From Candidatus Magasanikbacteria bacterium RIFOXYD1_FULL_40_23 (GTDB taxonomy: Bacteria; Patescibacteriota; Patescibacteriia; Magasanikbacterales; GWA2-37-8), in assembly GCA_001783215.1 (NCBI GenBank), contig MFRA01000005.1, forward strand, positions 329,423 to 393,422: a DNA stretch of 64,000 nucleotides, given 5' to 3'. The notes under the pieces are model-generated. The model was not told where the DNA came from. It was given only the letters and a program-made list of their open reading frames with translations, and ran no database searches. The translations under genes were made by a program, and so were the position numbers. Positions 14,258 through 28,565 of this stretch are shown in pieces (positions within the stretch are counted from its first letter, which is position 1; each line of letters begins with the position of its first letter).

Positions 14258-14265
14258 TGTTTAAT

Positions 14266-14303
14266 GCGGAGAGGGAGGGATTCGGCTTCGATTAAAATTT
14301 TGT
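14266..14303 (-). repeat. tRNA-Ser 3'-end-like fragment (att-like direct repeat, copy 2) just after the LigT stop
   Basis: minus-strand reading AATCGAAGCCGAATCCCTCCCTCTCCGC matches the 3' 15-17 nt of the tRNA at 15242-15326. Confidence 0.6.
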
Positions 14304-14858
14304 CTAGTTAGTTCCAAATTTTATATCCATTACTTTATGCCACGATTTAGCCCCATCATTTTTCTGATAAATTCGAATCGAATTAACTTCAAACGCAGGT
14401 AAATTTTTCAGTTCTCGCCTTGCTTTTTCCACCATCTCTAGCGTATCTTCTTTGGTGAGGCCCCACTTTATAGCTCCTAGAGTCAGGTGTGGATGGTATT
14501 CATTATTTTCAAAATATTTTTTTGCTGGATCTTTGTAGTATGGCCCAACTGCACTAAATAAGGTTTTATGAAGATTGATAAGTTCTTGAGAAAAAGCCGG
14601 TTTAAGGAAAATGACATTTTCGTCAAAATTTCCTACTCCTTCAAAAGAGATTTGAAATTTACTAAAACCATTTATTGCTGATTCTATTTTAGGTAGCCAC
14701 AACTTATCTTCTGTTAGTCCTCCCGTGGATTTCACTGTGATATGTGGCTCGACAAGATTAGGTACGTCATTATTAAGGAAGTTTCTTTGGAAAGAAATAA
14801 TTTTTTCACTTATTGTTTCTGGTGGTGTGATTCCTATAAAAAATTGCATAAGTTCCAA
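14304..14858 (-). CDS. 2H phosphoesterase superfamily protein (LigT/ThpR-like RNA 2',3'-cyclic phosphodiesterase)
   Basis: two H-x-T-x motifs (HITV, HLTL) with the appropriate spacing; 184 aa. Confidence 0.6.
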   Translation of the reverse strand: MELMQFFIGITPPETISEKIISFQRNFLNNDVPNLVEPHITVKSTGGLTEDKLWLPKIESAINGFSKFQISFEGVGNFDENVIFLKPAFSQELINLHKTLFSAVGPYYKDPAKKYFENNEYHPHLTLGAIKWGLTKEDTLEMVEKARRELKNLPAFEVNSIRIYQKNDGAKSWHKVMDIKFGTN

Positions 14859-14862
14859 TTTT

Positions 14863-14901
14863 GGCGGAGAGGGAGGGGTTCGGCTTCGACTAAAATTTTT
14901 T
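14863..14901 (-). repeat. tRNA-Ser 3'-end-like fragment (att-like direct repeat, copy 1) just after the GIY-YIG #1 stop
   Basis: minus-strand reading TAGTCGAAGCCGAACCCCTCCCTCTCCGCC, compared with the tRNA 3' end GGTTCGAATCCCTCCCTCTCCGCC. Confidence 0.6.
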
Positions 14902-15132
14902 ATCCAAATGTTTTTTTAAAAAAGCTCTGCCAGAACCAGATTTTAAATATTTTTCAAATTCAAATGCTGTGTATTTATCTTTGAATGCGAAGTAGGCTGT
15001 AAGTTCAACTGGTAAGCGCTTAGCTGTGGCTGGTACTTGGCCTTTTTGATGTCTAGCCATACGTTCTTTTAAATCGGATGTACAGCCAGAATAAAAACCG
15101 TCTTTGCATTTTAATATATAAACATAGTGCAT
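14890..15132 (-). CDS. small GIY-YIG nuclease-family protein (YhbQ/UPF0213-like), copy 1
   Basis: HYVYILKCKDGFYSGCTSDLKERMARHQ contains the GIY-YIG motifs and aligns with E. coli YhbQ; 80 aa. Confidence 0.7.
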   Translation of the reverse strand: MHYVYILKCKDGFYSGCTSDLKERMARHQKGQVPATAKRLPVELTAYFAFKDKYTAFEFEKYLKSGSGRAFLKKHLDKKF

Positions 15133-15241
15133 AAGCGGATTTTATCACGCCGAAGCTTCATCTTTGATAATTCGCATGAACCAAGTATTATGAAAAACTT
15201 AGAACTCGCCTCTGCCCTAAAGGGCTACGGCGAAGCGAAGG

Positions 15242-15326
15242 CGGAGAGGGAGGGATTCGAACCCTCGGTGCCTTGCGGCACACAGCTTTAGCAAAGCTGC
15301 ACAATCGACCACTCTGACACCTCTCC
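15242..15326 (-). tRNA. tRNA-Ser (anticodon GCU by hand fold), type II with long variable arm
   Basis: 7-bp acceptor GGAGAGG/CCTCTCC; anticodon stem CAGCT/AGCTG with loop TTGCTAA; variable arm GTGCC-GCAA-GGCAC; T-arm GAGGG-TTCGAAT-CCCTC; CC but no A encoded. Confidence 0.7.
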
Positions 15327-15362
15327 AGGTGTTGTCGTTTTATAATAAATCTTTTTAATTTT

Positions 15363-15764
15363 TTATTCGTATTGGCTCAGCATTTCTTCTAGTTCACGGG
15401 CCTCCCTCGCTTCTTTTTCTGCTTCAGTTTCGGTGGGTGTTTCAGTTAGCATTTTATTTTTAACTTCTGCAAAGAGTGCATCTACCTCTGTTTCAAGTAT
15501 CACGCCGCCTTGTTTGGCAATACTGCGCACACTATCTAGGCCGTAACCGTCTCTAATTCTTTTTTCCAAATGACCAAGGGCGAATGTCTTTACCTCTGTT
15601 TCCGGCGCGCCTAATTTTAAAAGCTCTCGAACTAAATCACCGCCATGTTCGGTATTTTTGCATGCCTGAGCATATTCTGGTCTTTGGGTAATATTTTTTT
15701 GTTCTGCGGTTTCTGTCGGATTCATTAGTTCCGCTTCTGTTGGGCCAGGTCCTTGCTCGGGCAT
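15363..15764 (-). CDS. hypothetical acidic protein
   Basis: 133-aa ORF with Glu-rich termini and no recognisable motif; sits between the two tRNA/GIY-YIG units. Confidence 0.35.
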   Translation of the reverse strand: MPEQGPGPTEAELMNPTETAEQKNITQRPEYAQACKNTEHGGDLVRELLKLGAPETEVKTFALGHLEKRIRDGYGLDSVRSIAKQGGVILETEVDALFAEVKNKMLTETPTETEAEKEAREARELEEMLSQYE

Positions 15765-15831
15765 ATTGGTATGAACAGTTGTTTAAACTAATTTGAAGTA
15801 TAGCACTGGTGGGTGAGCGGTGACAATTTGT

Positions 15832-15856
15832 CTGGAGAGATATGATTCGGCTTCGA
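15832..15856 (-). repeat. degenerate tRNA 3'-end-like fragment (att-like, copy 3), matching the 3' end of the second tRNA
   Basis: minus-strand reading TCGAAGCCGAATCATATCTCTCCAG, compared with the tRNA at 16209-16295 3' end TCGAATCTCTATCTCTCCGCC. Confidence 0.5.
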
Positions 15857-16099
15857 CTAAAATTTTTTATCCAAATGTTTTTTTAAAAAAGCTCTACCAG
15901 AACCAGATTTTAAATATTTTTCAAATTCAAATGCAACGTATTTATCTTTGAATGCGAAATAGGCTGTAAGTTCTAGTGGTCGGCGATTGATTGTGGCGGG
16001 AACCTGGCCTTTCTGATGTCTTGATATGCGTTCTTTTAGGTCTGAGGTGCAACCAGAATAAAAACCGTCTTTGCATTTTAATATATAAACATAGTGCAT
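15857..16099 (-). CDS. small GIY-YIG nuclease-family protein (YhbQ-like), copy 2
   Basis: 80 aa, identical to copy 1 at both ends but diverged in the centre (ERISRHQKGQVPATINRRPLEL vs ERMARHQKGQVPATAKRLPVEL). Confidence 0.7.
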   Translation of the reverse strand: MHYVYILKCKDGFYSGCTSDLKERISRHQKGQVPATINRRPLELTAYFAFKDKYVAFEFEKYLKSGSGRAFLKKHLDKKF

Positions 16100-16208
16100 A
16101 AGCGGATTTTATCACGCCGAAGCTTCATCTTTGATAATTCGCATGAACCAAGTATTATGAAAAACTTAGAACTCGCCTCTGCCCTAAAGGGCTACGGCGA
16201 AGCGAAGG

Positions 16209-16295
16209 CGGAGAGATAGAGATTCGAACTCTAGAGGCCCTTTCGAGCCCGGCAGTTTAGTAAACTGCTGCCTTAAACCACTCGGCCATCTCTCC
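16209..16295 (-). tRNA. type II tRNA (Ser-like); anticodon reads ACU in my hand fold, which is atypical
   Basis: acceptor GGAGAGA/TCTCTCC; D-arm GCC-GAGTGGTTTAA-GGC; anticodon stem GCAGT/ACTGC with loop TTACTAA; long variable arm; T-arm TAGAG-TTCGAAT-CTCTA. Confidence 0.6.
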
Positions 16296-16406
16296 TGATT
16301 ATGGAATTTTTGTAGCGATAGTGTATCAAAAAACCAGATAAAGTCAACCCTAAAGTTGCTGTAATTTTGCCCGGTTTTATTATATAATATCTTCTCTAGC
16401 AAACGT

Positions 16407-23784: not shown

Positions 23785-24672
23785 GTGCAAATGAAAACCA
23801 ATCGGACAATTTCTGGTGATTTGCTCATACTCATCGCCATGGCGATGTTTGGATCACTGTCACTGTTTTTGCGAATTTTGCCGCACGTTTCACCTCTTGC
23901 GTTTCTAGGTGCGTTTCAGGTAGTTGGCATGGTAAGTTTTTTCATTCTTGCCCGTGCTCAGGGAATGCCACGCCTTACAAAACGTGACTACCTTCTTCTG
24001 GTTGCTCTTGCCGTTACGGCAACCTTGAACGATTTGTGCTACTTCTTTGCATTTACCATGACTTCAGTGGCCAATGCGGCCGTAGCGCACCAGTCGGTTT
24101 CAATATTCCTGCTTATCCTTGCTCCGCTTTTGTTGCGTGAGCGTACGCGCAAGGAAGAGTGGGTTGCACTAATCATTTCTCTTGTCGGTATCGTTGTACT
24201 TTATAGCGATCAATTCGGAATGAGCGGCGATAACAGGTCGAGTCTTATCGGCATTTCGCTCGCAGTGATTTCCGGGCTCTTCTATGCGCTCATCATAGTG
24301 CTCTATCGAATTATCCCCAATCCAGATCGGGGCATCACCATTAGCGTAGTAAACTTTTGGCGACATTTGATAAGCGCTGTGCTTCTTCTGCCATTTCTGC
24401 CACTAATGAATCTTGGTAATTTGCATGTGCAAGATGCATTGCCAATTGTCGGCTTCGGTCTAGCCTTCGCATTTGTCGCCTCTGGAATTCACAATTACGG
24501 GATTAGCAAGACGCGTTCGCTTCATGTCTCCATCCTAGGGAAAAGTGAACCAGTATTTGCAATTGCCTATGCGGCGATGATTTTGCATGAAATGCCAACC
24601 ATACGAGTCTTAATTGGCGGAGCTCTTATCGTAGGGTCAAGCCTGTGGCTCGCCTTGAAGAAAGAAAAATAG
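23785..24672 (+). CDS. EamA/DMT-family transporter
   Basis: 10-TM protein with duplicated EamA halves; raised GC compared with flanking DNA. Confidence 0.65.
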   Translation: MQMKTNRTISGDLLILIAMAMFGSLSLFLRILPHVSPLAFLGAFQVVGMVSFFILARAQGMPRLTKRDYLLLVALAVTATLNDLCYFFAFTMTSVANAAVAHQSVSIFLLILAPLLLRERTRKEEWVALIISLVGIVVLYSDQFGMSGDNRSSLIGISLAVISGLFYALIIVLYRIIPNPDRGITISVVNFWRHLISAVLLLPFLPLMNLGNLHVQDALPIVGFGLAFAFVASGIHNYGISKTRSLHVSILGKSEPVFAIAYAAMILHEMPTIRVLIGGALIVGSSLWLALKKEK

Positions 24673-24711
24673 CACGTATCAATTTATAAATTATCTTCGG
24701 TTCACCGGTCG

Positions 24712-24756
24712 GCACTTTGGAAAAATTCGTAACAACGAACCCCAAAGTGCTTTTTT
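24712..24756 (+). terminator. candidate intrinsic terminator after the EamA gene
   Basis: GCACTTTGG ... CCAAAGTGC stem followed by TTTTTT. Confidence 0.35.
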
Positions 24757-24911
24757 AATAAAATTAAGCGAAAAATCTGGATATATCTTATATTGACAAA
24801 TAGAGTTTTATATGGTATTTATTAATATTCTTTTTAGTATGGTTGGGTAAAAATTATAGTCTAATTGATTATAGTTTTAACCCAATCATACAACTTGGAT
24901 AGGAGGTATCT

Positions 24912-25364
24912 GTGGAGAAGCGCAATCTGGATGTAGAGGAAGCTGCTCGCAATGGTATTTCGACTATCTATGAGCAGATGCCGAACGGAGAGTTCCGTTA
25001 CAAGCTCATGCATAGTGGTTTCGGCAATGTTGGTATCGGTATTGCTGGTATGCATGGTGTTTGGCAGAATAGCCACTACCACAAGGGTGTGCAAGAGTTC
25101 ATGGCAGTTCAAGAGGGTTGGATAGCTTTTGTTGAAATGACACCCGGCGGTCTTGGCTGGATCATTTTGCGCAAGGGCGATACAGTTATCAGCAAGCCAA
25201 ACATTGCGCACAATGTGTATGTGTCGGCTGGCACGGTGTTCTACGGCGTAAAGTTCGGCGATATTGATCCGGAAAAAGGGGATTGGTATCCCAGTCCGGA
25301 ACTCGACGTTCTTGTCAAAGGCATGAGCGAGAGTGAGATTCTTCTGGTTGGTGGAAAGAAGTAG
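24912..25364 (+). CDS. cupin-domain protein
   Basis: HYHKGVQEFMAVQEG ... two-His cupin motifs; GTG start 6 nt after an AGGAGG Shine-Dalgarno. Confidence 0.45.
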   Translation: MEKRNLDVEEAARNGISTIYEQMPNGEFRYKLMHSGFGNVGIGIAGMHGVWQNSHYHKGVQEFMAVQEGWIAFVEMTPGGLGWIILRKGDTVISKPNIAHNVYVSAGTVFYGVKFGDIDPEKGDWYPSPELDVLVKGMSESEILLVGGKK

Positions 25365-25606
25365 GTTTGGTCGGATTGCATTCGTCCAACCTCAGATTAT
25401 CCGAAGTCGGTCGCGTTAGCTACCGGCTTTTATATTTATTTAATATATTTGTCATCTTTATGGATAAAACCATATTGTAGCGTTAGGTGGTTCCAGTAGT
25501 TTAGGCTATTTCATAGGTGTGCATTCCCTTGACTTTTGTGTTTATTTATTATAGATTAATCTGTCCTCTCGATTTACAGTGAGTCGGAGACAAAAAGGGG
25601 AAAGTC

Positions 25607-26299
25607 ATGAAAATCCAGGGATTCGCGTTTGATCTTGAAGGTACGGTAGTGAATGTGGAGCCTGCACATCACAACGCCCATTTCGCCACTGCGGCGGAGG
25701 TTGGCTTGGAGATCAACTCCGATAATGCGTTTCAGCTCTTGCCACACTTCATCGGTGGGCCGGATATCAAGGTGATGGAGGACATTTGGGCACTTAGCCA
25801 GAAGAAGGTCTCGCCCGGTGAGCTATTGAAGCGCAAGCAGTTCCACTACGAGCAGCTGCTCGCAACGATGGACGTGGCTCCGCGCAGAGGCTTTCGGCAC
25901 TTCTTCAACACGGTTGTCGATCTTGGTCTGTCTGTTTCGATCGGTTCGCTTACTCCGATGGTTCAGGCCAGGGTGCTTCTGGATCGCTCAGGTGTGGGCA
26001 AGGTGATTGGGGAGGCGAACATTGTCTTGGCCGAGCATGTGCAGAATCACAAGCCGGCGCCCGATGTGTTCTTGGAGACCGCACGACGGATGGGAATCAA
26101 TCCCACGCGCCAGCTGGTTTTCGAGGATTCACCTCGAGGAGTTCAAGCGGCAATCTCTGCTGGCTCCCGAGCTGTTGGCATGCCGGTCTACAACCGGCCC
26201 GAGGCCACCGTGCCGCTCATCCAGGCGGGCGTTTGCCGGCTGTTCATGGAATGGGACGAGATTAGCGTCTTGCCGTTCCTTCAGAACCTGGCGATGTAG
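25607..26299 (+). CDS. HAD-superfamily hydrolase (beta-phosphoglucomutase-like subfamily)
   Basis: motif I FDLEGTV and a C-terminal FEDSPRGVQAA motif III/IV region; high GC; Shine-Dalgarno AAGGGGAAAG. Confidence 0.6.
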   Translation: MKIQGFAFDLEGTVVNVEPAHHNAHFATAAEVGLEINSDNAFQLLPHFIGGPDIKVMEDIWALSQKKVSPGELLKRKQFHYEQLLATMDVAPRRGFRHFFNTVVDLGLSVSIGSLTPMVQARVLLDRSGVGKVIGEANIVLAEHVQNHKPAPDVFLETARRMGINPTRQLVFEDSPRGVQAAISAGSRAVGMPVYNRPEATVPLIQAGVCRLFMEWDEISVLPFLQNLAM

Positions 26300-26318
26300 A
26301 CACGGTATTAGTAACAAC

Positions 26319-26366
26319 GGCCATCCGACACACGTCGGATTCAAATGAGGGCTTGGCCACCCTCAT
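26319..26366. repeat. island-specific double-hairpin repeat, copy 1 (GGCCATCCGACacacGTCGGAT + GAGGGcttggccaCCCTC)
   Basis: two adjacent perfect hairpins; a near-identical copy at 27203-27250. Confidence 0.6.
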
Positions 26367-26456
26367 CTAATGGCATTCCGAAGTGGTTTCGGGGTGGCTT
26401 GGATCCACCACGGGAATAATCGTGATGGAAAAACAATGAGTACAGGAAGGTGAGCC

Positions 26457-27185
26457 GTGGACATTCTCCTCATTCTCGGGCGTGGTATTCAGATGCTTCA
26501 GGCAACGGATCCGGTCTCGGAAGTTCGTTCATGGCAGTTGACCGAAGATCTTGAGATGTGTACTGAGTTGGGTGCGCACCCGCAAGTGCGTGTGCCCGTC
26601 GACGACAACGACCCCAATTGTCTGGTGGGGGGTGCTCAGTTGAACTTGGAAGCAGGCAAGGTGCTGATTCGGCAACATTCGCCACAGGTTGTCGTTTGTG
26701 CATACGGAGACCGTTCCAAGTATTTGAAAGATATTGGCGGGCCTTCAGAGAGCCAGGTGATGACCGGAGTTCTCCAGAAGGATCTTGTCGATGCAGATTT
26801 GGCCAGAAAGCCAGAATTGGTTATCTGGGATCCGGCGCGTTCAAAGGGCGCCCATTCGAACACTCGGCAGGAAATCCTCAACGTCTTCGATCTGGCTATC
26901 GAGCTTGGGTTGGAGCGAATCGGATTCGTGACTGTCGGAGTCCATGTTCCGCGGACAGCGACTTTCATTGCGAAGCACATTTCCACTTTCTCCAAGTACC
27001 AACATCTCTCGCCGGTCATGTTCGAGAGCGAAGAGGTGTTGCTCGGATCTTCCGACCAGTGGAAGTCTCGGGTTGATACTCTCCGCAATTCTCAGGCTTT
27101 CTCTCGCAACCTGACCAATGAGTTCAGAGGCACCTTGGCAGCGCTTACTGGGAAGTATAATGCCGTGAAGGAGCAGACGAAGTAA
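26457..27185 (+). CDS. hypothetical protein (weakly DUF218/YdcF-like)
   Basis: GTG start 6 nt after an AGGAAGG Shine-Dalgarno; ILLILGRG ... VVCAYGDRS blocks; high GC. Confidence 0.3.
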   Translation: MDILLILGRGIQMLQATDPVSEVRSWQLTEDLEMCTELGAHPQVRVPVDDNDPNCLVGGAQLNLEAGKVLIRQHSPQVVVCAYGDRSKYLKDIGGPSESQVMTGVLQKDLVDADLARKPELVIWDPARSKGAHSNTRQEILNVFDLAIELGLERIGFVTVGVHVPRTATFIAKHISTFSKYQHLSPVMFESEEVLLGSSDQWKSRVDTLRNSQAFSRNLTNEFRGTLAALTGKYNAVKEQTK

Positions 27186-27202
27186 GCCCTTCGTAGTTAC
27201 GT

Positions 27203-27250
27203 GGCCATCCGACGCATATCGGATTTTAAATGAGGGTTTGGCCACCCTCA
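27203..27250. repeat. island-specific double-hairpin repeat, copy 2
   Basis: GGCCATCCGACgcatatcGGAT + GAGGGtttggccaCCCTC, matching copy 1. Confidence 0.6.
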
Positions 27251-27423
27251 ATTATCAGTAATCTGATTTTTATAAATGAGATTAGTGATAAGCAAAAATA
27301 CAAAAATATTTTTGTAAAAAGTTCTTTTCAATTTATTTTTTGCACAACACGTTTATTATTTTAAAATTTTTGAACTAATAAGTGTGTTGTGCAATGGGTG
27401 CACATGCGAACCAGGAGAACGAC

Positions 27424-28431
27424 ATGGATACTGATTTTTTCACGTGTGATTCGCAGTTTGTTATGGAATTGTCTGCCCCTGTTCGGGCGGCTGTATTCGC
27501 CGTTCTGGCAGCCGGTGATGTGGCCCAATGGGAAGATCGCGTGCCGAGAGTAAAGGCCGGCGAAGGACAACGTTCCGTTGTTACCGATGGAGATACAAGC
27601 GCAGAGGCGGTCATGGTGAGGAGACTGTTCTATTATGCTGGCTACAACGCACTTATTCTCTCCGAAGAGGACGCCAAGGGTGTCAATATTCTGTCAAAAG
27701 ATAACCCTGTGGGTATCTTGGAAGCAGAGGTTGCTTTCGTGATTGATCCCATCGACGGTACCGCACCCTATTCCGGCTATTTGGGCACATGGTGTGTGTC
27801 GGTTGGGGTGCTGAGTAAGGGCGAAATTATCGGCGGAGCTGTCTATGCTCCGGATCTCAACGGCGGGATGCTGGTCTTTTCGGAGAGGGGGTTGGGAACG
27901 ACTCTGATGAAGTACTGTTCGTTGCCCGCTCGTACACAGATTAGTAAGATTCCATTCCTTACGGCTTCAACCAAGGTGAAGAAGGCTAGGATTGGGCGTG
28001 GTGTAGATACGGATCTCTATCGTCTGATCGGTGAGCTGGTGAGCGCAGAAATCGCTCCCAGCGTGAACATGACCGCGGTGTGCAATTCTGGCATCCTGGG
28101 CCTAACGCAGGTCGCTTGTGGCCAGCTTACGGCTATCATTCAGATGCCGCAGAAGTCATGGGATTGGGCAGGTGCATTTCGCGCCGTGCTAGAAACCGGA
28201 CGGACTGTGTCGTTCTTCCGTCTACTGCCAGATCCAAGCGCTCAGAAATCGGATATGCTGGTGGAAGTGGACGGTTATGACTTCGATGCGTTTAGGTATG
28301 CCAAGCAGCATCGGCTTGGTTTCGTGGCTGGTGAGCCGGACATGGTTCGGCGCATCATGGAGCAGATGCCTCGTACGGGCTACAACCGCACCAACCCGGA
28401 GACGGTTGCCGGAGTTTGGAAGGACAAGTAG
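27424..28431 (+). CDS. inositol-monophosphatase/CysQ-family phosphatase
   Basis: metal-binding motif VAFVIDPIDGT; the start was set to ATG 27424, 6 nt after an AGGAGA Shine-Dalgarno; high GC. Confidence 0.6.
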   Translation: MDTDFFTCDSQFVMELSAPVRAAVFAVLAAGDVAQWEDRVPRVKAGEGQRSVVTDGDTSAEAVMVRRLFYYAGYNALILSEEDAKGVNILSKDNPVGILEAEVAFVIDPIDGTAPYSGYLGTWCVSVGVLSKGEIIGGAVYAPDLNGGMLVFSERGLGTTLMKYCSLPARTQISKIPFLTASTKVKKARIGRGVDTDLYRLIGELVSAEIAPSVNMTAVCNSGILGLTQVACGQLTAIIQMPQKSWDWAGAFRAVLETGRTVSFFRLLPDPSAQKSDMLVEVDGYDFDAFRYAKQHRLGFVAGEPDMVRRIMEQMPRTGYNRTNPETVAGVWKDK

Positions 28432-28565
28432 ATAAGGAGTAAGCAATGACGCTCTGTCATCAAGTCCAAAGCGGACAAGATGGCAGGGCGTGTTTTTATA
28501 TTGCATTCTTAGGCAAAAATTGGTAAAGTATAGGGCATATAATCGTAGATAAATCTACTAAACCT

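Follow-up and report, generated by a model that had tools for sequence, protein, structure and literature searches.

Probable recombination between two tRNA-anchored GIY-YIG cassettes in a Magasanikbacteria genome, with a hairpin trailer that may be acted on by their nuclease

How can two neighboring copies of one small gene be identical at one end, nearly so at the other, and anciently diverged in between? The question is raised by a 64-kb stretch of the genome of Candidatus Magasanikbacteria bacterium RIFOXYD1_FULL_40_23 (64,000 nt; hereafter, the window), in which two genes encoding 80-amino acid (aa) GIY-YIG proteins, copies A and B, each follow a different serine transfer RNA (tRNA) gene and a 107-nt trailer. 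Features were placed on the window from open reading frame (ORF) and tRNA (ARAGORN) predictions and from Rfam 15, Pfam and NCBIfam scans; comparisons were made with 223 fetched loci and contigs (denoted L plus number) and with family proteins (P plus number). On the minus strand, to which all genes, tRNAs, trailers, relics and promoter-like sites of this locus belong, the order is tRNA-Ser(ACT) (tRNA2, 16207..16295; Rfam RF00005, 54.5 bits), trailer B (16100..16206), GIY-YIG copy B (15857..16099), a 133-aa ORF (ORF133, 15363..15764), tRNA-Ser(GCT) (tRNA1, 15240..15326; found by both ARAGORN and Rfam), trailer A (15133..15239), GIY-YIG copy A (14890..15132) and a LigT-like gene (14304..14858). 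Each trailer directly abuts the 3' end of its tRNA, and the two copies lie in direct orientation, 967 bp apart.

Global alignment of the homology blocks 14879-15248 and 15846-16215 yielded 370 gapless bp with 27 differences, all of them within 14929-15085. The differences are not spread uniformly. The tRNA-proximal tract (15086..15248, equivalent to 16053-16215), made up of the last 9 nt of the tRNA, the trailer and the first 15 codons, is identical at 163/163 positions; the adjoining center (15007..15085, equivalent to 15974-16052, inside codons 16-55) shows 22 differences in 79 bp, or 72% identity; and the distal tract (14879..15006, equivalent to 15846-15973), which ends in an 11-nt post-stop tail common to both copies (sense TCGAAGCCGAA; 15846..15856 in B, where it forms the left end of the block), shows 5 differences in 128 bp. 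When the 27 differences were placed at random over the aligned block, 100,000 placements produced neither the crowding of 22 of them into 80 bp nor 163 identical bp in a row (p < 1e-5). The patchwork of identical flanks and diverged center reported in a preliminary description of this DNA is thus real and far beyond chance, and its statement that the tRNAs differ entirely beyond their last 9 nt was confirmed, only the terminal CTCTCCGCC being common to Ser-GCT and Ser-'ACT'. Some of its details required correction: the segments estimated at about 110, 70 and 190 bp measure about 128, 79 and 163 bp, the peptides quoted as aa 28-50 are residues 23-44, and the left ends that it assigned to the blocks (14863-14878 and 15832-15845) are not homologous, being relics of two different tRNA 3' ends.

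Twenty codons differ between A and B, 13 of them synonymously; the 7 amino acid changes cluster at residues 25-55. Both copies look functional, since none of the 7 falls at a family-invariant column. Synonymous divergence (dS) amounts to 0 in codons 1-15, 1.19 in codons 16-55 and 0.08 in codons 56-80, with a nonsynonymous divergence (dN) of 0.11 and a dN/dS ratio of ~0.09 in the center. Upon comparison with ~136 homologous coding sequences, the flanks proved 98-100% identical between A and B and at most 87-90% identical to any other homologue (up to 87% to other lineages for codons 1-15, whose synonymous sites are identical in A and B), while the centers were 78% identical to one another and up to 80% identical to homologues from other organisms. 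The center is anciently diverged and the flanks are recently homogenized: saturated dS adjoins a dS of 0 inside one small gene, which selection on the protein cannot give, and the segments are therefore of different age.

Contigs from the same species, found through exact-protein look-ups in several samples and produced by several assemblers, provided recombinant forms of the locus. Both copies are present on an independent SPAdes contig of 393,751 bp (ERZ4902915; L081/L086) that matches the window at every position over 5,243 bp; a 433,619-bp contig also carries B, and contigs from other samples (L085, L090) run from B through tRNA1 into A. Two JGI metagenomes (L087, L089), in contrast to these two-copy forms, contain a clean 967-bp deletion haplotype in the order tRNA2, A-type gene, A downstream sequence, the gene being A-type at all 27 diagnostic sites and the junction, or crossover interval, lying in the 163-bp identical tract. 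We infer that this haplotype arose by a reciprocal crossover in that tract; it derives from the two-copy state, as the relic behind its gene is tRNA1-derived. One further contig, L094, joins an A-type gene to B's downstream sequence and represents a converted B locus unless it is chimeric. When the flanks of the 223 loci were compared all-against-all, only the two-copy and one-copy recombinants differed in cassette presence.

Both tRNAs have near-identical orthologues in a sister lineage, that of tRNA2 being found in L098 and at the start of L001. L001 reads tRNA2, trailer without an ORF, tRNA1, trailer, GIY-YIG gene and Exo_endo_phos gene; L098, reading tRNA2, trailer, GIY-YIG gene and Exo_endo_phos gene, is a deletion form analogous to L087/L089. 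Trailer identity within genomes is 107/107 for A vs B in the window and, in the sister lineage, 103/108 for the linked vs the solo trailer of L001 and 216/216 for the solo trailer of L001 vs L098, compared to 93/107 (87%) between the window and L001. As the trailers of the two lineages agree at only 87% of positions, constraint does not keep them invariant. Their within-genome identity exceeds their between-genome identity in repeats that are older than the split and, as judged from these sequences, they evolve in concert. As a side observation, tRNA1 (Ser-GCT) is missing from L087/L089 and from L098. The tRNA-Ser with anticodon ACT (A34), which reads the same AGY codon box as Ser(GCT), is conserved in several Patescibacteria loci (the window, L098, the start of L001, L018, L020 and L050); A34 is unusual among bacterial tRNAs outside tRNA-Arg(ACG).

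The dS steps, the identities to homologues, the recombinant haplotypes and the sister-lineage trailers all bear out the earlier suggestion of gene conversion or recombination rather than a simple recent duplication, and we consider it very probable that the mosaic is due to recombination, in the form of gene conversion and crossover, between a pair of short direct repeats. Non-reciprocal homologous recombination would have homogenized 163 bp on the tRNA side and 128 bp at the distal end, leaving the central ~80 bp with its old, between-species divergence. The conversion tracts would begin at the cassette boundaries, where homology meets non-homologous tRNAs or downstream DNA, and end inside the ORF, and a reciprocal crossover in the 163-bp tract would have given the deletion haplotype.

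The alternative that survives best is itself a form of recombination operating in the opposite direction, with original flanks and an imported center. According to it, the whole unit was recently duplicated or transposed to the second tRNA, after which the central ~80-160 bp were replaced from a third, diverged GIY-YIG copy located elsewhere in the genome or from transformed foreign DNA. This scenario calls for one event vs the two tracts of flank conversion, and the 27 differences, confined as they are to 14929-15085, may be a single patch. Moreover, 5 of the 7 amino acid differences of B (37 I/V, N38, R40, L42 and V55) are common to the P0022 lineage, such that B's center represents a pre-existing allele class. 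No donor was found, however, B's center being 76% identical at the nucleotide level to L095 (P0022) and thus no closer to it than to A. The tRNA-end relic behind B is far more decayed than that behind A, suggesting an old insertion despite its new-looking flanks, and the sister lineage already has two tRNA-linked trailers in tandem. Given the age of the trailer pair and the decay of the relic behind B, homogenized flanks are favored over an imported center, which we regard as possible but rather unlikely. Three points nevertheless weigh against flank homogenization: a single imported central patch fits the data equally well; none of the ~136 homologous coding sequences comes closer to B's center than 76-78%; and L094, a 513-nt MEGAHIT contig, could be chimeric.

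What, then, is the unit that recombines? Its protein belongs to a family that is very large in Patescibacteria, with 2,337 matches above the search threshold that are typically 70-80% identical. Copies A and B match PF01541 (E 6.4e-12 and 2.7e-12, respectively; scores of 46.1 and 47.2 bits vs a cut-off of 22.6), B being identical to P0001, a protein of Candidatus Magasanikbacteria RIFOXYD1_FULL_40_23. The domain spans residues 1-68 of 80, and both copies consist of the GIY-YIG domain only, with no added DNA-binding domain; other members measure 76-98 aa. Twenty-nine family members agree throughout in Y3, Y5, Y14, G16, R24, R27, H28 and E60, all of which A and B possess as well, and catalytic roles may be assigned to these residues by analogy. 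The only solved relatives are the UPF0213 structures 1ZG2 (profile match to copy A, E 6e-11) and 1YWL; no NCBIfam model matches the GIY-YIG protein or ORF133. A tblastn search of 72,556 plasmids returned only 3 weak matches, and a phage origin was rejected, with one locus in the 2.9 million viral contigs of IMG/VR. Four loci with two GIY-YIG matches (L029, L053, L065 and L080) were considered as further mosaics and set aside, as their second copies are distant paralogues (36-48% identity) too remote to inform on conversion. These second genes form a separate subfamily of small GIY-YIG proteins (L029 1798-2025, L053 945-1175, L065, L080), located a few kb from the tRNA-linked gene and having GC-rich repeats of their own upstream. 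A distant homologue of 106 aa (39% identity) is encoded on the Sphingomonas parapaucimobilis plasmid NZ_CP155752.1 (L223, ~1357-1447), with a perfect, CTTCG/CGAAG-rich 28-bp inverted repeat upstream (GGGCTTCGACTTCGCTCAGCCTGAACGG ... CCGTTCAGGCTGAGCGAAGTCGAAGCCC).

In most of the informative loci, as in the window, the unit reads tRNA ending in CCGCC, GC-rich hairpin trailer, and gene for a single-domain GIY-YIG protein. Linkage was counted in 80 genome loci with 77 informative GIY-YIG matches, 64 of which lie 64-372 nt (median 94) 3' of a tRNA on the same strand. The linked tRNAs are Ser (52, all anticodons), Trp (9), Asp (2) and Thr (1), Ser, Trp and Asp thus accounting for 63/77. The Thr call (L080) is really an unannotated, intron-split tRNA ending in CCCCCACC; this Yanofskybacteria tRNA (L080 2629-2990), missed by ARAGORN, is interrupted by a group I intron (RF00028, 47.1 bits vs a gathering score of 50; E 8e-11). 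Trailers were found only behind tRNAs ending in xCCGCC, never behind other tRNA ends, and start with TTCG right after the tRNA. The nearest protein relative has the same tRNA or anticodon in 12/62 cases vs 11.1 expected; as protein kinship and tRNA identity match only at chance level, the cassette has changed tRNA partner, or its paralogues have been homogenized, many times. With regard to expression, promoter-like sites lie 5' of tRNA2 (16320..16347; TTGACT-16-TACACT, TG) and 5' of ORF133 (15797..15826; TTGTCA-18-TATACT, TG). None was found on the coding strand within trailer A or B, for which reason tRNA and GIY-YIG gene are probably co-transcribed.

Two hairpins were assigned to each trailer: a module-1 hairpin (16172-16206 in B, 15205-15239 in A) and hairpin 2 (CGGCGTGATAAAATCCGC; 16102-16119 in B, immediately 5' of the ATG, and 15135-15152 in A). 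Short trailers are predicted to fold into one long interrupted hairpin with hairpin 2 at its apex. Hairpin 2 has a stem of 7 bp with a conserved flanking GCTWC, and its loop is 3 nt long in 57/60 cases. The stem varies as GAC/GTC, GAT/ATC, GGC/GCC and GGT/ACC, and compensatory double changes occur in 8/17 pairs of the alifold consensus of the trailer. One trailer arm covaries with two alternative partners, 92-97% of cells being paired under the two alternative structures vs ~35% with slid partners. Since G-U pairs are confined to the tRNA/GIY-sense strand, the structure belongs to that strand, as RNA or as single-stranded DNA (ssDNA). Hairpin 2 is found upstream of the gene, in sense orientation, in 56/76 loci, compared to 1/73 at a distal control position, and its 3' strand repeats the terminal hexamer of the adjacent tRNA in 58/60 loci, the variable base being T for Ser (48/49), C for Trp (9/9) and A in one Asp case. 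Rfam 15 holds no family for the trailer at either the gathering score or a relaxed E-value, the sub-threshold matches overlapping tRNAs. Readings of the trailer and relics as a group I/II intron, a retroelement primer-binding site, a tRNA-like 3' element or an attC-like site were dropped by eye, because the non-coding part, at 64-107 nt, is too small, reverse transcriptase and integrase are absent, and the relic has no 5' acceptor partner. A motif scan of metagenomes, many of whose other matches were due to chance in GC-rich genes, retrieved 26 loci with a trailer behind tRNA-Ser, 11 with the GIY-YIG gene and 15 without it. Separately, tandem arrays of 2-5 trailer units were seen behind a single tRNA-Ser (five at 63-nt spacing in L122; also L161, L022, L055, L070 and L117), each unit ending in a new TCCGCC.

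The downstream side of the cassettes bears copies of tRNA ends. The last 20 nt of tRNA1, from T-loop C56 to the 3' end, recur directly behind cassette A (14863..14882; 19/20; sense CGAACCCCTCCCTCTCCGCC, the next A giving CCA) and again at 14265..14284 (19/20), with 0 copies expected by chance. In the sense reading, AAAATTTTA(G/A)TCGAAGC, the terminal sequence of a GIY-YIG unit, stands before both copies, the second being preceded by AAAATTTTAATCGAAGC, which matches such an end. Behind B lies a degenerate relic of the tRNA2 3' end (15830..15849; sense CGAATCATATCTCTCCAGAC vs CGAATCTCTATCTCTCCGCC in tRNA2), a weak match (ATCTCTCC plus CGAATC) too degraded for a 3-mismatch scan. Similar tRNA-end relics occur in about 10/62 other loci, and the copies have the look of scars left where DNA was inserted at the 3' ends of tRNAs. 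The LigT-like gene, of the 2H phosphoesterase/2'-5' RNA ligase family, sits between 36-nt direct repeats (14266-14301 and 14864-14899; 94% identical) composed of the last GIY-YIG codons, the tail and the tRNA1 3'-end copy, and this arrangement may be a second cassette or a duplication. Only the GIY-YIG or LigT gene is found inside the cassettes, with no integrase or recombinase. A search of metagenome contigs for the tRNA1 end joined to LigT gave 0 matches in a collection that apparently lacks the species of the window. Downstream genes (LigT, ORF133, Exo_endo_phos, VIT1) vary among close relatives.

The tRNA1/trailer junction is also the exact integration point of a prophage-like element in other haplotypes (L082-L084, L088, L093), where ...CTCTCCGCC/TTCGC (CCGCC/TTCGC) is interrupted, with attL after window position 15240 (L082-L084) and attR before 15247 (L088/L093). 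The element encodes an Amidase_2 protein and a large serine recombinase of 537 aa, the latter read in the L084 haplotype. Its ends are inverted repeats, GGTTCTAACTT(CG)GGACATC; a nearly identical right end abuts the trailer of an unrelated metagenome contig (L134), and other element ends abut trailers in L105/L108, L129, L143/L168 and L170/L176. Two features elsewhere in the neighborhood are recorded here for completeness. ORF133 is acidic, has no family match in Pfam or NCBIfam, and occurs in every two-copy haplotype but not in the deletion form. A patch at window positions ~24000-28500 has a GC content of 46-51% vs ~38% elsewhere, encodes an EamA transporter, a cupin, a HAD hydrolase, a DUF218 protein and an inositol-monophosphatase family protein, and was possibly acquired horizontally.

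Such scars bring up a second alternative, namely that the cassette is an active selfish element, a homing-type or hairpin-dependent transposon driven by its GIY-YIG protein, which recently inserted behind both tRNA-Ser genes, the mosaic then resulting from recombination between element lineages during copying, with co-conversion gradients. The local tRNA 3'-end copies downstream of the inserts, the repetition of the tRNA hexamer in hairpin 2, the lack of correlation between tRNA partner and protein kinship, the changing downstream genes, the tandem trailer arrays and the peak of identity next to the junction would all suit such an element. Against it, no empty-site, cassette-free allele was found among the 223 fetched loci, related contigs included; the protein is ~70-80% identical across classes and under purifying selection, which sets it apart from most homing endonucleases; it lacks a DNA-binding domain, and the hairpin stands at one end only; and there are just two copies in 64 kb, with trailers commonly occurring without the gene. 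We consider this explanation improbable. The earlier characterization of the cassettes as an active, recombining element family accordingly holds as far as recombination, which is seen in the haplotypes, is concerned; 'active' goes beyond the evidence, present-day mobility being something that the sequences at most suggest.

It may further be asked whether a collapsed or chimeric repeat created the flank identity or the second copy, an artefact that the preliminary description had advised checking for. The 163-bp identical tract does exceed common k-mer sizes, and several contigs break exactly at the repeat borders (L085 at 15086) or begin inside the repeat (L083/L084). Several independent assemblies give both copies, however, the SPAdes contig spanning the two and others carrying B or linking B, tRNA1 and A, and assemblers do not erase true differences between repeat flanks; an assembly origin is therefore very unlikely. 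As to selection alone, with flanks fixed by nucleotide-level constraint and the center diversified for two specificities, the conserved trailer structure and the clustered amino acid changes may evoke it, but it is refuted by the dS pattern and hardly deserves credence in view of the 13 synonymous codon changes and omega of ~0.09 in the center, the synonymously identical codons 1-15 that are no more than 87% identical to other lineages, and the 87% trailer identity between sister lineages.

Whether the protein itself takes part in this recombination is best approached through known systems. The Ssn nucleases (SsnA of Neisseria meningitidis; cd10448, GIY-YIG_unchar_3) are 94-aa single-domain GIY-YIG enzymes that cut only ssDNA, beside an oriented hairpin repeat (NTS/SRM) flanking their own gene, and this activity modulates the recombination of transforming DNA (Chenal et al. 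2025, PMC11893778). The cassettes described here likewise set a small (80-94 aa) single-domain GIY-YIG protein beside an oriented GC-rich hairpin; the hairpins are of similar size, with a 5-nt conserved flank, a stem of 7-8 bp and a loop of 3 nt, they also exist as gene-free copies, and in both cases the pair is proposed to shape recombination. NTS is dispersed in hundreds of copies, compared to two of the present hairpin in the 64-kb window; this hairpin is confined to the 5' side of the gene, reads in the sense direction and is fixed to CCGCC tRNA 3' ends; the host, moreover, is a member of the Patescibacteria, and PMC11893778 mentions neither Patescibacteria nor tRNA. By analogy, the cassette may work like the Ssn/NTS pair, although we do not file it as an Ssn member.

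More specifically, and tentatively, the protein may act on its own trailer hairpin in the manner of Ssn. It would bind the GCTWC flank, 7-bp stem and 3-nt loop in ssDNA and nick nearby, at or near the tRNA/trailer junction, making the junction recombinogenic; a nicked junction would account for the conversion tracts, the prophage at the junction and the repeated change of tRNA partner in Patescibacteria. Several observations weigh against such a role. The published SRM motif (HGTCWY N0-2 YYVSBRH N0-5 WNVSBRG N0-2 RNCYNB), sought on both strands with a regular expression that does match the NTS consensus, had 0 matches in the 64-kb window and from -400 to +300 of 84 homologous genes, nor did it match around the Sphingomonas plasmid homologue. 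The hairpin motif occurs downstream of the gene in only 6/76 loci, hence on the 5' side rather than on both, and the window holds two trailers, both behind tRNAs, vs hundreds of NTS repeats. The G-U pairs on the sense strand fit RNA no less well than ssDNA, and, since 15/26 trailers behind tRNA-Ser lack a GIY-YIG gene, the trailer may serve a purpose connected with the tRNA, or exerted as RNA, in which the nuclease has no part. Taken jointly, recombination as the source of the mosaic and the cassette model seem to us, on balance, a reasonably probable reading.

Other systems share single traits with the cassette. As in REP/BIME-RAYT (TnpA-REP) and IS200/IS605 elements, a nuclease gene stands beside palindromes on which its product presumably acts, with tandem and gene-free repeats, and a short sequence at the side of the hairpin matches the flanking target, here the tRNA terminal TCCGCC in hairpin 2. 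No Y1/HUH transposase ORF is present here, in contrast, the hairpin marks one end only, and the niche at tRNA 3' ends is fixed. For REP/RAYT and IS608, the comparison draws in part on what PMC11893778 says in its discussion. Phage T4 SegB is described as a free-standing GIY-YIG homing endonuclease in a tRNA gene cluster, whose homing co-converts flanking DNA (PMC2330249). The present GIY-YIG genes also lie among tRNA genes, and co-conversion as presented there would give identity falling away from a cut. Seg enzymes are ~200 aa or more in length and have DNA-binding domains, whereas the protein here has 80 aa, its family is cellular rather than phage-borne (a single IMG/VR locus) and no empty target allele was found.

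Islands and prophages at tRNA ends, with their duplicated attachment (att) sites, resemble the cassettes in that the terminal ~20 nt of the tRNA recur as direct repeats on either side of the inserts, and the serine-recombinase prophage uses the same tRNA end; the inserts here differ in being 0.4-0.6 kb single-gene cassettes without an integrase. Duplicated bacterial genes such as tufA/tufB and the ribosomal RNA (rRNA) operons evolve in concert by gene conversion. They and the cassettes have in common a within-genome identity that exceeds that between genomes, sharp-bordered mosaic tracts and crossover deletions between direct repeats; the present repeats, unlike those, are only 370 bp long, and their tracts stop inside an 80-codon gene.

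On its own, the mosaic is a textbook case of short direct repeats undergoing gene conversion, in which a specialist would see nothing surprising. Of greater consequence, possibly, is the very abundant family, in the Candidate Phyla Radiation (CPR), of 80-aa GIY-YIG proteins tied to a covarying hairpin that starts at the last nucleotide of particular tRNA genes. No description of a linkage between GIY-YIG gene, trailer and tRNA end was found in the searchable literature, and this tRNA-anchored unit of trailer and GIY-YIG gene seems to vary the nuclease-plus-hairpin theme in a way not described before. One might go further and conjecture, with distinctly low confidence, that it represents an undescribed class of nuclease-hairpin elements specific to Patescibacteria and their neighbors, addressed to the 3' ends of tRNAs in CCGCC (Ser, Trp, Asp), in which the apical hairpin is built from a copy and the complement of the last 6-8 nt of the tRNA, in a target-templated or guide-like fashion, and the nuclease nicks ssDNA at the tRNA/trailer junction, such that tRNA ends would act, in these minimal genomes, as programmed hot spots at which cassettes are exchanged, gene conversion occurs and prophages integrate. 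Should the protein indeed prove to be an ssDNA nuclease of the Ssn type that has its site in the trailer, ssDNA tools would gain new enzyme/site pairs, the Ssn/NTS principle would reach a new phylum and a precisely addressed niche, and there would be a mechanistic handle on the ends of tRNA-Ser genes as hot spots of recombination and integration in these tiny genomes.

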